Assembly: GCA_030041735.1 (NCBI GenBank)
Contig: JASIBA010000027.1
Coordinates: forward strand, 1 to 43,904
DNA: 43,904 nt
Direction of reading: 5' to 3'
Source of the DNA: Thermoplasmata archaeon
Lineage (GTDB): Archaea > Thermoplasmatota > Thermoplasmata > Lutacidiplasmatales > UBA184
Position 1 is the first letter of the stretch; every line of letters starts with the position of its first letter. Positions 16,041 through 27,229 of the stretch are shown in pieces. Under the pieces are notes generated by a model, which ran no database searches, was not told the origin of the DNA, and saw only the letters and a program-made list of their open reading frames with translations. The translations under genes and the position numbers were made by a program.

Positions 16041-16056
16041 GTCAAGCCGAGTTGAC
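16041..16056 (-). promoter_or_regulatory. Palindromic operator/UAS GTCAActcggcTTGAC upstream of the arc operon
   Basis: Read on the minus strand: GCGTCAACTCGGCTTGACGC, then 6 nt, then CCCAAGTAC (16034-16026), with the ATG 46 nt after the motif. Four other promoters share this architecture. Confidence 0.55.
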
Positions 16057-17056: not shown

Positions 17057-17072
17057 GTCAAGTCGACTTCAC
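17057..17072 (+). promoter_or_regulatory. Palindromic operator/UAS GTCAAgtcgacTTCAC upstream of the racemase gene
   Basis: Followed by 6 nt, then CCTAAGTAC (17079-17087). The ATG at 17119 lies exactly 46 nt after the motif. Confidence 0.5.
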
Positions 17073-22392: not shown

Positions 22393-22417
22393 CGCCGGGA
22401 CCCCCGGCATCGAACGC

Positions 22418-22433
22418 GTCAAGGTCACTTGAC
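22418..22433 (+). promoter_or_regulatory. Palindromic operator/UAS GTCAAggtcacTTGAC upstream of the GNAT gene
   Basis: Perfect 5+5 palindrome. After 6 nt comes the AT-rich TTCATTTGC (22440-22448). The ATG at 22480 lies exactly 46 nt after the motif. Confidence 0.5.
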
Positions 22434-22479
22434 GGGCCCTTCATTTGCCGCGTGGCGGCTCCCCCCGATCGGGGACGCC

Positions 22480-23118
22480 ATGAGGCCGGAGCCGGGCGGG
22501 GAACCGACGGGGTCCCGCGATCCCGTGGAGGTGGACGCGCTGCGCGACGGGACCCGCGTACGGATCCGCCCGCTCCAGACCGGCGATCGACCAGGAGTCG
22601 AGGAGTTCGCGCGGCGGCTCTCGCTGGAAGCGGTCGAGCTCCGGTACTTCGTCCCGCTCCCGCCCGCGCGCGTCGTCGAGGAGCTGCTCGGCTCGGACCG
22701 GGTCACCGGCCGATACGCGGCGCTCATGGAGACCGTCGGGCCGGGGCCCGTCCGGATCGTGGGGCACGCGGAGTACGTTCGACCGAAGGACGGACGCGCG
22801 GTGGCCGAGGCGGCCTTCGTGATCGCGGACTCGTTCCAGGGTCGGGGTGCCGCCACGCTCCTCCTCTGGCACCTGGCGGCCGTGGCCCGGTCCGAGGGCA
22901 TCCGGACCCTGGAAACGGTCGCGCTCCGGACGAACGCGGCCATGCTGCAGGTCTGTTTCGACGCCGGGTACCCCTTCTCGGTCGCGCTCGAGGAGGACAC
23001 GGTGCGGGTCTCGCTGGACATCTCGGGGGAACGACAGACCGCGCTCTCCTCCCTCGCCGACCGCCCGGAGGCGTTCCTCGAGCGGCGGGCTCGGCCCTCC
23101 ACTGGCCCGGCGGCCTGA
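22480..23118 (+). CDS. GNAT-family N-acetyltransferase (Pat-like acetyltransferase domain)
   Basis: 'IRPLQTGD...', 'FVIADSFQGRGAATLLLWHLAAVARSEGIRTL'. The ATG at 22480 is preferred over the TTG at 22429, which lies inside the palindrome. Confidence 0.75.
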   Translation: MRPEPGGEPTGSRDPVEVDALRDGTRVRIRPLQTGDRPGVEEFARRLSLEAVELRYFVPLPPARVVEELLGSDRVTGRYAALMETVGPGPVRIVGHAEYVRPKDGRAVAEAAFVIADSFQGRGAATLLLWHLAAVARSEGIRTLETVALRTNAAMLQVCFDAGYPFSVALEEDTVRVSLDISGERQTALSSLADRPEAFLERRARPSTGPAA

Positions 23119-23170
23119 GCCCGATGGTCCGGGCGCCGACGCCGGAGGGGTCGGACCGACCTCGCCCCGC

Positions 23171-23509
23171 CTACTCGACGAGCGATCGGACGAGCTGCAC
23201 AAAGGGAGCGGGGACGAGGGGGAGCCCGACCGGATGGACGCCACCCCCCGCGACGGCCAGCGGATCGCGCGAGCCCACGACCACGAGCTCGGGCCCGGCG
23301 AGCTCGCCGCGCAGGTAGGACCGGAGGGTCGGACAGTGTCCGCTGTTGGCCGCGGCCACGATGACGCGGACGCCCCGGAGCCCCGCGCGTTGGGCCGCGT
23401 CGACCTCCGGTGCGAACCGGGTGGGGACCCCGTAGGCGTCGAGCAGGTCCACGATCGCCCGCCCAAGGCTCGGGGTCTCGCCCACGACGAGGACCCGGGC
23501 CCCGTTCAT
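23171..23509 (-). CDS. Small receiver-like (pseudo-receiver) protein lacking the phospho-acceptor Asp
   Basis: The alternating beta/alpha pattern 'RVLVVGETPSLGRAIVDLL...VRVIVAAANSGHCPTL...ELVVVGSRD...' resembles CheY-like REC domains. The acidic pocket (GE instead of DD) and the Asp (Ala) are replaced. High GC3. Fold assignment is inference. Confidence 0.55.
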   Translation of the reverse strand: MNGARVLVVGETPSLGRAIVDLLDAYGVPTRFAPEVDAAQRAGLRGVRVIVAAANSGHCPTLRSYLRGELAGPELVVVGSRDPLAVAGGGVHPVGLPLVPAPFVQLVRSLVE

Positions 23510-23546
23510 ACCGGCCGCCGTCGCGCCCCGCCGATTTAGCCCGCCC

Positions 23547-23562
23547 GTGAACTTTACTTGAC
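23547..23562. promoter_or_regulatory. Palindromic site GTGAActttacTTGAC (minus strand: GTCAAgtaaagTTCAC) in the divergent pseudo-receiver/kinase intergenic region
   Basis: In the minus orientation it is followed by 7 nt, then CTAAATC (23539-23533), with the ATG at 23509 37 nt after the motif. The AT-rich spacer CTTTAC could serve as the TATA element for the plus-strand kinase gene (GTG 23589). Confidence 0.5.
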
Positions 23563-23588
23563 CCGCGCGCCGTAGCCGGCCCGCCGCC

Positions 23589-25061
23589 GTGCCCGAGACC
23601 GAACCGGACCCGGAACGCTCGCTCGCGCTCCTCGAGAGCGCCCCCGTAGGGATCGCGCTGCTGCGGGCCCCGGGCGTGGTCCGGTGGGCGAACGCGGCCT
23701 ACTTCGAGGTCACGGGCCGCTCCCGCGAGCTGCTCGGCAAGGACATCCACGACATCCTGGAGGCGGACGGGAGCTGGTCGGCTCCGATCCGCAGCGCGGT
23801 CGACGCGGCCCTCACGGCGGGCGCCGCCGCGACGTTCCGGAACGTGCGCGCCGTCTACCGGCCCCAGGCCGCGCCGGTCTACCTCGACGTCGACATCCGG
23901 CGCCTTCCCGGGCCGGACCGCCCGCCCGCGGAGGCGCTGCTGATGGTCCGCGACGTGACCGACCGGGTCGCCGAACGCGAGCGGGCCGACGTGTTCCAGC
24001 TGGCCTTCCGGAGCTCGACGAACGCGATGCAGCTGACCGACGCGCGCGGGATCATGGTCGACGTGAACCCGGCCTTCGAGCGGATCTACGGGTACTCTCG
24101 GGCCGAGTGCGTGGGCCGGAAGCCGAACCTCGTCCGGAGCCGGTACACGCCGGTCGAGCTGTACGAGCGGATGTGGGCCGACCTGAAGGACCCGAGCCGG
24201 GGCGCGTGGTCCGGCGAGCTGCTCAACCGCGACCGGTACGGTCGCGAGCACCCGGTTCTCCTCTCGATCACGGCGATCCGCGACGCCCGCGACGAGATCA
24301 CGCATTACCTCGGCGTGGCCGTCGACCGGACCGAGCAACGCGAGTGGGAGATGGCGTCCGCGCACATGGAGCGGCTGGCCTCCATGGGCCAGCTGGCGGC
24401 CGGGATCGCGCACGAGATCAACACGCCGATGGCGAACGTGATGCTCATCGCGGAGAGCCTCCGCCGACGGTCGTCCGACCCGGAGATCCGCCACCGGCTG
24501 GAGACGCTCCAGGGCCAGGTCGAGGTCGCGGCCCGCATCGTCCGCAGTCTGCTCGACTTCGCGCGCCGCGACGAGCCGACCGTGGCCGACGTGGACCTCG
24601 CGGAGATCGCGCGGGCGTCGGTGGGATTCCTCCGCGGCAAGCAGTCGATGGACGTCGAGGTCCTCGAGGACCTGCCCGACGGAGGCCTCCCGGTGCGGGG
24701 CGATCGGGGCCAGCTCATCCAGGTCGTGACGAACCTGCTCAACAACGCCTACGACGCGGAGCATGGGGAGGGACGCATCGTCGTACGCGGCCATCGGCGG
24801 GGCTCGTGGGCGGAGCTCGAGGTCCGCGACAACGGGCCCGGCATCCCGGAGGAAGCGCTCACCCATCTGTTCGAGCCGTTCTTCACGACCAAACCCGAGG
24901 GCGAGGGCACCGGGCTCGGCCTCGCCATCTGCCACGGGATCGTCCAATCGCACCACGGTTCGATCCGCGGTCAGAACCTCCCCGAAGGAGGGGCCTCGTT
25001 CGTGGTGGTGCTCCCGCTCCGGGAGGGCCGGGCCGTCTCGGCGGGCGGAACCCCCGCCTGA
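23589..25061 (+). CDS. Cytoplasmic PAS-domain sensor histidine kinase
   Basis: Two PAS-like regions ('[12 protein letters not shown]', '[38 protein letters not shown]'). H-box '[12 protein letters not shown]', N-box 'NLLNNAYDA', G-boxes 'DNGPGIP' and 'GTGLGLAI'. Confidence 0.9.
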
Positions 25062-25086
25062 AGCCGGGACCGAGATCCCCCGGCCC

Positions 25087-25102
25087 GTCAATTCGGCTTC
25101 AT
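25087..25102 (+). promoter_or_regulatory. Degenerate copy of the palindromic site (GTCAAttcggcTTCAT) upstream of the DUF981-like gene
   Basis: Followed by 6 nt, then CCCAAGTAG (25109-25117), nearly identical to the arc promoter's CCCAAGTAC. An ATG at 25150 lies 47 nt after the motif. Confidence 0.45.
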
Positions 25103-25226
25103 GGAGCGCCCAAGTAGCGCGGGGCGCGATCCGTCGGCCGGTGAGACCCATGACGGAGCCGAGAACCTGCCCGAAGACCGAGCGATCGATCGCGGACCGA
25201 GGGACCGAGGACGGGAGGGAAGGACG

Positions 25227-26030
25227 ATGAGCTTCACCACGTTCGTCGACGACCTCGCGCTCGTGCAGGTGCTGCTCGCGCTCGTGGCGAGCGTGCTCGC
25301 CTACGCCGGCGTGCGCGTCTGGTGGGCCCTCCGGACCAACGATCCCGAGGGACTGCGGGGCGTGCTCCGAGGCGCCGCGGTGCCGATGGCGGGCCTCGGC
25401 CTCGTGGCGCTCGTGCTCGCCCTGTGGGGCGAGATGACCTGGCCGTTCCTCTCGTCCGACGGGCTGGGCGGCTACAACATCTTCTTCTTCGACCCGATCG
25501 TGCTGCTCGGCATCGTCCTGGTCTCGTACGCGGCCACGGTCGTCCTCTCGGCGAAGCTGCAGTACGTGGGTCTGATCGCGTTCGTCGCCGGAGCGGTGAC
25601 GATGTTCTACGGATACACGGGATACACCGCGAGCCCCGCGTTCACGAAGGACCCGCTGGACACCCTGCTGCTCTACCTCGCCTTCGGCGCGGCGGGGCTC
25701 TTCGCGTTGCCGGCCTCGATCGTGGTCGACTACTTCCTCGGGGCTTCCGACGCGGGTCGCGTGCCCTTCGCCTTCGCGATCGGTCGGAGCCACCGCCGCG
25801 GAACCGGGCTGGGGACCCGGGCCGTACAGCCCGTCGTGCCGGCGGTCGACGTGGCGTCCAACGCTGCAGAGGACGGGACCGGATCCACCACCTTCCGCGT
25901 CCCGGCCTGGGCCCAGGTGCTGGTGCTCCTCTTCCCGGTGTTCGTCGCGCTCGCCGGGATCGCGGCGTTCTGGTACTTCGGCGTCACGCTGCCGGGCCAC
26001 CTGGGCAGCGGCCCCGCCGGCGCGCCCTGA
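25227..26030 (+). CDS. DUF981-like integral membrane protein with a C-terminal extension
   Basis: Strong SD 'GGGAGGGAAGG' 3-13 nt upstream of the ATG. Multiple TM helices and a 'GGYNIFFFDP' block recalled from DUF981 proteins. An extra C-terminal TM 'WAQVLVLLFPVFVALAGIAAFWYF'. Confidence 0.65.
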   Translation: MSFTTFVDDLALVQVLLALVASVLAYAGVRVWWALRTNDPEGLRGVLRGAAVPMAGLGLVALVLALWGEMTWPFLSSDGLGGYNIFFFDPIVLLGIVLVSYAATVVLSAKLQYVGLIAFVAGAVTMFYGYTGYTASPAFTKDPLDTLLLYLAFGAAGLFALPASIVVDYFLGASDAGRVPFAFAIGRSHRRGTGLGTRAVQPVVPAVDVASNAAEDGTGSTTFRVPAWAQVLVLLFPVFVALAGIAAFWYFGVTLPGHLGSGPAGAP

Positions 26031-26134: not shown

Positions 26135-27229
26135 TTGCGGCCCCCCGTGCGCGTCCTCGTGGTCGACGACGACGCGGTGTTCCGGGAGGAGCTCGCCGAG
26201 CTCTTGCGGGACGAGCGCCACCAGGTCGAGGCGGCTCCCTCGGTCGGCAAGGCGCTGGAGTGGCTGGAACGCGAGGAAGCGGACGTCGTGCTCACCGACC
26301 TGCGCATGCCGAGGCACAGCGGCCTCGAGCTGCTGCGAGAGGTCCGCACCCGCTGGCCACGGACGCTGGTCGTCGTGATCACCGGCTTCGCCTCGGTCGA
26401 CACGGCCCTGGAGGCGATGAAGGCCGGCGCGTTCGATTACGTGCGCAAGCCGTTCCGGATCGAGGCGCTCCGCGCGACTCTCGAGCTCGCGGCCCAGCAG
26501 CGAGCGTTCGCGCCACCTCCGGCGGCCGAGCGGGACCCGTCCGCGGAGGCGCGGGCGCTCGCACGCCCCGGCGACGTCGAGGTCCTCTACCTGGCGAGCG
26601 ATCCTCCCCGGGCCACCGCGCACCTCCACTTCGCCGCCCTGGACCCGGGGGACCTCGCCGCGGCCGTGGATCGGGTGCGCGACTTCGTGGGAGAGCACGC
26701 GCGGGCGGCCGTCGTCCTCGCTGACGTGGGACCGGTCCTCGCCCGCCACCGACTGGGCGATGTCCTCGGCGCGCTCGATTCGATGCGGGCGCTGCTCGAG
26801 GGCCACGGTGCCCTCCGGGTGGGATTCGATCCCGCGCGGGTCGCTCCCGACGTCGCGACGGCCGTCGCCGGCGCGGTCGCCGCGGACGAGACGCAGAGTA
26901 CGATGGAAGCGCTGGCCAATCCCATCCGGCGCAAGGCGCTCGAGCGTGTCGCGCACGCCCCCGCCCCGTTCGGGGAGCTCATGGCGGCGGCCGGGCTCGA
27001 CGACTCGCCGAAGATGTCGTTCCATCTTCGCAAGCTGGTCGACGCCGGTCTGCTCGCGCACGAAGGGGAGGAGTATCGACTGACCTCGCGCGGCGGCGCG
27101 GTCCTGCGGCTCCTGACCGACGCCACGCTCCTTCCTCCGACCGGGGCGACCTCGAACCGGGCGTTCGCGCACGCGGAGCCGGCGGGGTCCGAGCCGGCCG
27201 GCCGGCCGAAGCCCCGACGCGACCCCTAG
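26135..27229 (+). CDS. Response regulator: REC / DUF835-like middle domain / ArsR-type winged HTH
   Basis: Canonical REC ('VLVVDDD', 'VVLTDLRMP', 'VVITG', 'DYVRKPF'). The middle 'AAVVLADVGPVLARHRLGDVLGALDSMRALLEGHGALRVGFDP' resembles the DUF835 core. The C-terminus 'LANPIRRKALERVAHAPAPFGELMAAAGLDDSPKMSFHLRKLVDAGLL' is wHTH. An alternative leaderless GTG at 26147 sits downstream of the AT-rich 'aaagcttgatttt'. Confidence 0.85.
   Translation: MRPPVRVLVVDDDAVFREELAELLRDERHQVEAAPSVGKALEWLEREEADVVLTDLRMPRHSGLELLREVRTRWPRTLVVVITGFASVDTALEAMKAGAFDYVRKPFRIEALRATLELAAQQRAFAPPPAAERDPSAEARALARPGDVEVLYLASDPPRATAHLHFAALDPGDLAAAVDRVRDFVGEHARAAVVLADVGPVLARHRLGDVLGALDSMRALLEGHGALRVGFDPARVAPDVATAVAGAVAADETQSTMEALANPIRRKALERVAHAPAPFGELMAAAGLDDSPKMSFHLRKLVDAGLLAHEGEEYRLTSRGGAVLRLLTDATLLPPTGATSNRAFAHAEPAGSEPAGRPKPRRDP

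Follow-up and report, generated by a model that had tools for sequence, protein, structure and literature searches.

How can two divergent genes of a two-component signalling locus be controlled from a gap of 79 nt that holds a single palindrome? The question is raised by positions 23510–23588 of the window (hereafter, the whole 43,904-nt stretch of DNA that was analysed), which separate the ATG of a pseudo-receiver gene (23509, minus strand) from the GTG of a histidine kinase gene (23589, plus strand). The palindrome, of which there is likewise one in the gap of all orthologous loci, lies 37 nt from the ATG and 26 nt (23563–23588) from the GTG. The gap, the palindrome, the CTAAATC box, and both of these intervals had been given in the original prediction as gap counts, and they are correct when read directly from the sequence. 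Public gene calls of conspecific MAGs give identical 112-aa and 490-aa products with the same 79-nt gap, and no within-species variation was found across the gap, where the conspecific MAG sequences are identical.

Contig C146 of an incomplete genome (164 contigs, 1.85 Mb, 71% GC) makes up the window. This genome encodes a TATA-binding protein (TBP) with two repeats in a single 190-aa frame (contig C41, E = 1e-30), whose matches among the control genomes were archaeal only; thus, the organism is an archaeon. Runs of at least four T occur genome-wide at only 0.16 per kb per strand, so that oligo-T termination signals are scarce. The features discussed below are as follows (coordinates in the window, strand, and description).

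16041–16056, minus: candidate operator copy ahead of an amino-acid permease gene (ATG 15994, minus)
17057–17072, plus: candidate operator copy ahead of an Asp/Glu racemase gene (ATG 17119)
22418–22433, plus: candidate operator copy ahead of a GNAT gene (ATG 22480)
23171–23509, minus: pseudo-receiver gene (112 aa), predicted leaderless; receiver fold with Ala for the acceptor Asp
23532–23539, minus: TATA-like box of the pseudo-receiver, CTAAATC at 23538–23532 (PWM core CTAAAT at 23539–23534), 7.3 bits
23534–23539, plus: ATTTAG, rival candidate for the kinase TATA box, 5.5 bits; core at −55 to −50 from the GTG
23540–23546, minus: GC-rich spacer of 7–8 nt from operator to TATA box; putative BRE position according to archaeal promoter geometry
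23547–23562, in the divergent gap: 16-bp imperfect palindrome GTGAACTTTACTTGAC, that is, GTGAAC-TTTA-CTTGAC
23553–23558, plus: TTTACT, candidate kinase TATA box, 6.0 bits; core at −36 to −31 from the GTG
23556–23561, plus: ACTTGA, third candidate, 3.2 bits; core at −33 to −28 from the GTG
23589–25061, plus: soluble histidine kinase gene (PAS, PAS, HisKA, HATPase) with GTG start; H-box AHEINTP
25087–25102, plus: fifth, weaker candidate operator copy GTCAATTCGGCTTCAT, followed after 8 nt by CAAGTAG (box of 6.1 bits)
26135–27229, plus: response regulator with intact REC and C-terminal winged helix; candidate binder of the palindrome

The divergent genes and the palindrome between them

The 112-aa product of the minus-strand gene matched no family in a Pfam search, even at E = 1. 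A profile of 45 orthologues run against PDB matched receiver domains over their full length (RegX3, E = 0.007), and the AlphaFold2 model (pLDDT 92.4), in which strands and helices alternate, gave its best Foldseek superpositions with receiver domains, including the CikA pseudo-receiver (TM 0.65–0.70), at weak E-values of ~2e-3. Ala53, which is aligned with the acceptor Asp, is invariant, the acidic pair is changed to GE, and the conserved Lys to Leu. The name pseudo-receiver for the product of 23171–23509 is thus justified. The family has (near-)invariant residues of its own, namely GETPSLGRS near the N-terminus, A53, W65, VVGSRDP, and LPL, and the model is devoid of the fourth helix of a receiver; these residues or the missing helix may provide a surface for binding of the kinase or the regulator.

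The kinase start at GTG 23589 is sound in view of the homologue N-termini and the public gene calls: the N-termini of the relatives' kinases align at residue 1–2, with start codons where projected. Alternative starts were considered and rejected, because the open frame extends no further upstream than 23562 and includes a single start ahead of the PAS domain, GTG 23589. On its upstream side, the frame is closed by an in-frame TGA in the right half-site TTGAC of the palindrome (23560–23562), present also in several relatives, and the operator therefore also bounds any upstream extension of the kinase ORF. When the kinase was used as a query against the genome contigs, only generic bacterial histidine kinases with 25–43% identity were matched.

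Encoded downstream on the same strand is a response regulator (Response_reg, E = 4e-30; DUF7347/HTH_20) with the domain order REC, unassigned middle region, and winged helix-turn-helix (wHTH), in which the residues DD, D55, T83, and K105 are all present. The phosphorelay residues of both the kinase and the regulator are thus intact, and the regulator is syntenic with the palindrome in 15 of 15 extended loci. From co-location and this conserved synteny, we infer that the palindrome is the site of the neighbouring regulator (26135–27229).

The palindrome is more than a chance pattern. GTSAA-N6-TTSAC was observed four times in the window against 0.04 expected, none of 100 shuffles reached four, and the whole 1.85-Mb genome contains five matches, four of which are inside 7.5 kb. 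The copy in the divergent gap carries the 6-nt spacer CTTTAC (23552–23557), the only AT-rich spacer among the five window copies. The four copies outside the gap share one layout, in which the palindrome is followed by 8 nt, a weak AT-containing box (CAAGTAC, TAAGTAC, CATTTGC, or CAAGTAG), and an ATG 47–48 nt past the palindrome; the genes downstream are those for the amino-acid permease, the Asp/Glu racemase, the GNAT acetyltransferase, and the DUF981/regulator unit. The 8-nt gap from operator to box holds at all five copies, and the distance from palindrome to ATG is 9 nt less at the pseudo-receiver than at the others. The copy at 25087–25102 lies 3′ of the kinase stop and 5′ of the DUF981 and regulator genes, a position from which the DUF981/regulator unit seems to have its own regulator-dependent promoter, an arrangement that would amount to positive autoregulation. 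If the DUF981 gene is given its longest ORF, the start (ATG 25101) falls within this operator copy, and the true start is therefore probably the in-frame ATG 25227.

Homologues of the pseudo-receiver (E ≤ 1e-10) were found in 74 of the 149 other species-level genomes of the genus. Among 80 loci gathered around homologues, with a few weaker matches included, the palindrome (up to 4 mismatches to the consensus) was present in 77, and in 75 of these 77 orthologous loci it lies 35–41 nt from the pseudo-receiver ATG. The genus also retains the order pseudo-receiver, palindrome, kinase, (DUF981), and regulator. At every copy, the better conserved half-site is the one distal to the regulated gene; in the 23547–23562 palindrome, this is the pseudo-receiver-distal half-site CTTGAC (23557–23562), and the kinase-side hexamer NTTGAC is found in 68 of 77 orthologous gaps. 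The better conservation of the kinase-side half-site agrees with a site built for the pseudo-receiver gene.

Beyond these loci, most of the 150 genomes in the genus (for example, G062, G018, and G066) contain the palindrome pattern in excess of the reversed pattern used as a control, among them genomes in which no pseudo-receiver was found. The regulon or the regulator family is thus wider than the pseudo-receiver/kinase module, and a comparison of motif count with pseudo-receiver presence over the 150 genomes proved uninformative for the same reason.

Promoter candidates on the two strands

Promoter elements were scored with a BRE/TATA matrix of the form gAA-N3-TTAWAT, trained on the genome without the contig that forms the window; the training cores lay mostly from −28 to −23 up to −31 to −26 of start codons, and the matrix is based on crude gene calls in one incomplete genome. 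In upstream regions genome-wide, positions −1 and −2 are strongly G/C (AT 0.15 and 0.21) and a weak G-rich stretch occurs at −13 to −7, which suggests a mix of leaderless and short-leader transcripts, although the crude gene calls may contribute to this pattern.

On the minus strand, CTAAAT was the top match in the gap (background tail 0.0006). Its core lies at −30 to −25 from the ATG, where the genome-wide AT peak is at −29 to −26, with the leaderless mode nearby, and in the pseudo-receiver promoters of relatives, TATA-like boxes (CTATAAT, CTATAGT, CATATG, GATTTAT, and similar) invariably stand at the same place, at about −30 to −25, between palindrome and ATG. The original prediction had proposed for the pseudo-receiver a layout of palindrome, 8 nt, CTAAATC, and ATG with a near-leaderless transcript; the 7.3-bit box and the spacing kept in 75 of 77 loci bear it out. 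Collectively, these comparisons of sequence support well that the palindrome is a conserved operator in the upstream-activator position of a predicted leaderless pseudo-receiver gene. With the operator a mere 8 nt away from the TATA box, interference with TFB is also conceivable, which leaves activation of the pseudo-receiver gene less than certain.

On the plus strand, the top match was TTTACT (background tail 0.0015), which consists of the palindrome spacer and the first base of the right half-site. Its 6.0 bits compare with a median of 5.2 bits for the best matches of 588 real upstream regions, and 3.7% of random 60-nt windows reach this score. The core starts at −36, close to the kinase boxes of relatives (median −38, interquartile range −40 to −33, n = 50, these being the scorable non-compact loci with the best box taken in the −50 to −20 zone), and the window's remaining regulon boxes have their cores at −40 to −31. 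Archaeal transcription starts ~26 nt downstream of the TATA centre, and the start from TTTACT is predicted near 23581–23583 (23583 is a G after a C), leaving a leader of ~6 nt. The second-ranking candidate, ATTTAG, is the pseudo-receiver TATA box read on the opposite strand, for which the predicted start is at ~23562–23565. As only 26 nt are left before the GTG, a kinase promoter active inside the gap cannot avoid overlap with either the operator or the pseudo-receiver promoter.

By these measures, the spacer element TTTACT is the best candidate for the kinase TATA box. The proposal that the spacer doubles as this box was thus upheld as regards its top plus-strand score and its position, which is that of the relatives' boxes, but not as regards its being the sole candidate, since ATTTAG reaches 5.5 bits. 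Moreover, in the sister species G035, the palindrome contains no TATA-like match (the best of the zone being 2.3 bits), and the top plus-strand match is ATTTAT, the equivalent of ATTTAG, at 8.2 bits. The idea that the right half-site CTTGAC has taken over the role of the ACTTGA-type kinase box of several relatives was rejected as the main interpretation: ACTTGA scores only 3.2 bits here, and the distance from box to start is ~31–36 nt in relatives versus 24–27 nt from the end of the palindrome in this gap.

Compaction of the operator–kinase interval and its possible consequence

Over all loci, the palindrome and the kinase start are separated by 25 to 135 nt. Only three loci are compact, namely that of the species studied here (G000; 27 nt), G035 (28 nt), and G029 (25 nt), and the next shortest distance is ~35 nt. 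In the non-compact loci, the best kinase box lies beyond the palindrome in 50 of the 50 that could be scored; these boxes include ACTTGA, AGATGA, AGAAAT, TTTTGA, and CCATAG, often with CGACAG or CGAAAG just before. In a tree of the kinases, the three compact species form one clade (100/100) nested among long-gap lineages, and the palindrome-to-kinase distances in the sister pair of this clade are 63 and 90 nt. On this tree, the compaction is a single derived event. The overlap of operator and promoter, which the original prediction had taken as a property of the signalling module itself, must accordingly be narrowed to a derived state of one three-species clade, the 50 other scorable loci all having a separate box.

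The spacer is TTTAC in both G000 and G029, whereas G035, which is sister to G000, has the GC-rich GTGCAG in the same compact geometry. AT-rich spacers occur in 2 of the 3 compact loci as compared with 8 of the 74 non-compact ones. The branch on which the contraction falls is also the one on which the TTTA spacer and a C-to-G change of the left half-site appear, a coincidence that is suggestive at the level of sequence. As the three compact loci represent one event, the co-occurring changes count as one observation, and the link between AT-rich spacer and compaction carries no statistical weight. In G035, the 27 nt past the palindrome include a hairpin with a stem of 7 bp and a loop of 3 nt (CGCGACC-CTG-GGTCGCG), after which GAGGG occurs 8–11 nt ahead of the ATG; nothing equivalent is present in the window.

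The gap layout, its conservation, and the promoter fit are observed, and a switch may be proposed on them as follows. The regulator (REC plus winged helix) would bind the 23547–23562 palindrome, which at the pseudo-receiver would act as an upstream activating site 8 nt before a TATA box located ~27 nt ahead of the ATG. The DNA between operator and kinase has shrunk to 25–28 nt in the three compact species, and an interval of this length would place the kinase core promoter on the operator. In the most likely arrangement, TTTACT (23553–23558) would be the kinase TATA box with the left half-site at the BRE position, and kinase transcription would start near 23583 with a leader of ~6 nt. From left to right, the gap would then contain the pseudo-receiver TATA box (23534–23539), its BRE (23540–23546), the kinase BRE (23547–23552), and the kinase TATA box (23553–23558), that is, two minimal promoters back to back with the operator over the kinase half. 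A winged-helix dimer, with half-site centres 10 bp apart, would occupy the same stretch as TBP. As the regulator dimer and the TBP/TFB of the kinase could not share these bases, the phosphorylated regulator should turn the pseudo-receiver up and the kinase down, which would amount to a negative feedback loop on the kinase. For this scheme, we infer which protein binds, whether each gene is turned up or down, and where transcription starts. We give an even chance to its core, namely that the operator overlaps the kinase core promoter and that the bound regulator raises the pseudo-receiver and lowers the kinase. The further proposal, that the operator was remodelled in the three-species clade so that it serves the pseudo-receiver as its activating site and, at the same time, the regulator's own kinase as its BRE/TATA, is put forward tentatively, as possible but doubtful. 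If true, it would constitute a hard-wired toggle in an archaeal two-component system, whereby signalling lowers the kinase and raises a decoy receiver.

Other explanations of the same layout have to be weighed against this switch. The kinase might use the pseudo-receiver TATA box in reverse (ATTTAG, 23534–23539), with a start at ~23562–23565 and a leader of ~24 nt, in which case the operator would lie between TATA box and start, repression would occur through blocked entry of the polymerase rather than through TBP, and the divergent promoters would compete for one TBP site. ATTTAG at 5.5 bits on the plus strand comes close to TTTACT at 6.0 bits, and the reversed box fits G035 better, where ATTTAT scores 8.2 bits and the palindrome offers no candidate. 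This score is unspecific, however, as TATA boxes that are nearly palindromic give matches on both strands in most relatives, with the kinase start at least 100 nt off, and a core at −55 to −50 from the GTG is unlike the kinase box of relatives (median −38). GUG starts are poorly used on leaderless mRNAs in haloarchaea; the kinase starts with GTG, and leaders of both 24 nt (reversed box) and 6 nt (spacer box) would avoid a leaderless GUG. On balance, we regard the use of the reversed box as unlikely. We assign a similarly low probability to an operator that exerts no control over the kinase, the AT-rich spacer being neutral and the kinase being made at a low constitutive level, either from a weak promoter that escapes recognition or from GNAT-unit transcripts that run on across the pseudo-receiver gene in antisense. 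Such read-through is possible in that no run of four or more T exists on either strand in 22400–25300, and the neutrality of the spacer accords with the GC-rich spacer of G035 and with the AT-rich spacers at non-compact loci; a promoter-like kinase box independent of the operator is also present in all 50 scorable relatives. Nevertheless, any start within the 26 nt needs factor binding on the operator, read-through would meet pseudo-receiver transcription head-on, and the orientation of the GNAT gene varies among relatives (L119), so that read-through is no general solution.

The activation assumed in the preferred scheme could itself be mistaken, if the regulator were a repressor at all copies whose dimer covers the BRE and blocks TFB, the copy in the gap shutting off both genes. 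The fixed 8-nt gap from palindrome to box, which leaves room for the BRE only, is in keeping with such a repressor. Against it, the regulon boxes are weak (2.2–6.1 bits) and have no purine-rich BRE of the genome consensus, as is typical of activator-dependent promoters, and sites directly upstream of the BRE likewise activate in CopR (PMC7830388) and GvpE (PMC2241852); we therefore consider general repression quite improbable.

Comparison with known archaeal switches

By analogy, the closest precedent for the proposed switch is CopR of Pyrococcus furiosus at copR/copA, where the TBP/TFB sites of the two divergent genes flank a single semi-palindromic site, located directly upstream of the BRE of copA, and more regulator raises copA and lowers copR in vitro (PMC7830388). 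As with CopR, a lone operator is situated in a divergent gap, 8 nt from the TATA box of the gene presumed to be activated, a likeness known here from sequence alone. CopR is a one-component metal sensor (HTH plus TRASH) that represses its own gene; here, by contrast, the presumed binder is a response regulator that depends on phosphorylation and has its gene 2.5 kb off, the predicted loss of expression concerns the kinase with which it is paired, and the operator would extend over the very TATA box. Placement of the operator on or downstream of the TATA box of the gene presumed to be repressed would be forced by the geometry in G000, G035, and G029, and was not encountered in the 50 scorable non-compact loci.

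Very compact divergent control regions are also represented in archaea by the PA/PD gas-vesicle promoters of Halobacterium and Haloferax, which are 35 nt apart and both activated by GvpE via two overlapping sites, the activator sequence standing directly upstream of each BRE at a critical distance (PMC2241852). In contrast to GvpE, the one site here would lie upstream of the first promoter but within the core promoter of its neighbour, and opposite effects are predicted. For SurR and TrmBL1/Tgr of Thermococcales, an operator upstream of BRE/TATA activates and one over or downstream of the TATA box represses; these regulators act through separate sites at separate promoters and sense redox or sugars, with no phosphorelay. 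The rule that the position of the site relative to BRE/TATA sets the sign is thus already established for CopR, SurR, and TrmBL1, and what the present locus would add is one more natural example, which can be dated on the phylogeny, and not a new mechanism.

Archaeal regulators with a DNA-binding output are called "quite rare" in a census (PMC5847659). The kinase–regulator pairs FilI-FilR1 of Methanosaeta harundinacea and LtrK-LtrR of Methanococcoides burtonii, as presented there, resemble the pair studied here in joining a histidine kinase to a winged-helix or HTH response regulator, and differ from it in domain order, FilR1 being wHTH-DUF1724-REC and LtrR HTH-REC as against REC, middle region, and wHTH here; the passages on these two pairs describe no operator over the kinase promoter (PMC5847659). 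If the overlap works, one 16-bp site would be activator site and core promoter together, and the negative feedback on the kinase, which has a promoter of its own in sister lineages, would be the product of a short deletion. To our knowledge, DNA sites are known for very few archaeal response regulators, and the feedback wiring of archaeal two-component systems is essentially undescribed. Presumably, then, the overlap is sensibly viewed as an example, confined to three related species, of a known kind of archaeal gene switch, which would be unusual here in its player, a DNA-binding response regulator, and in its target, the partner kinase.
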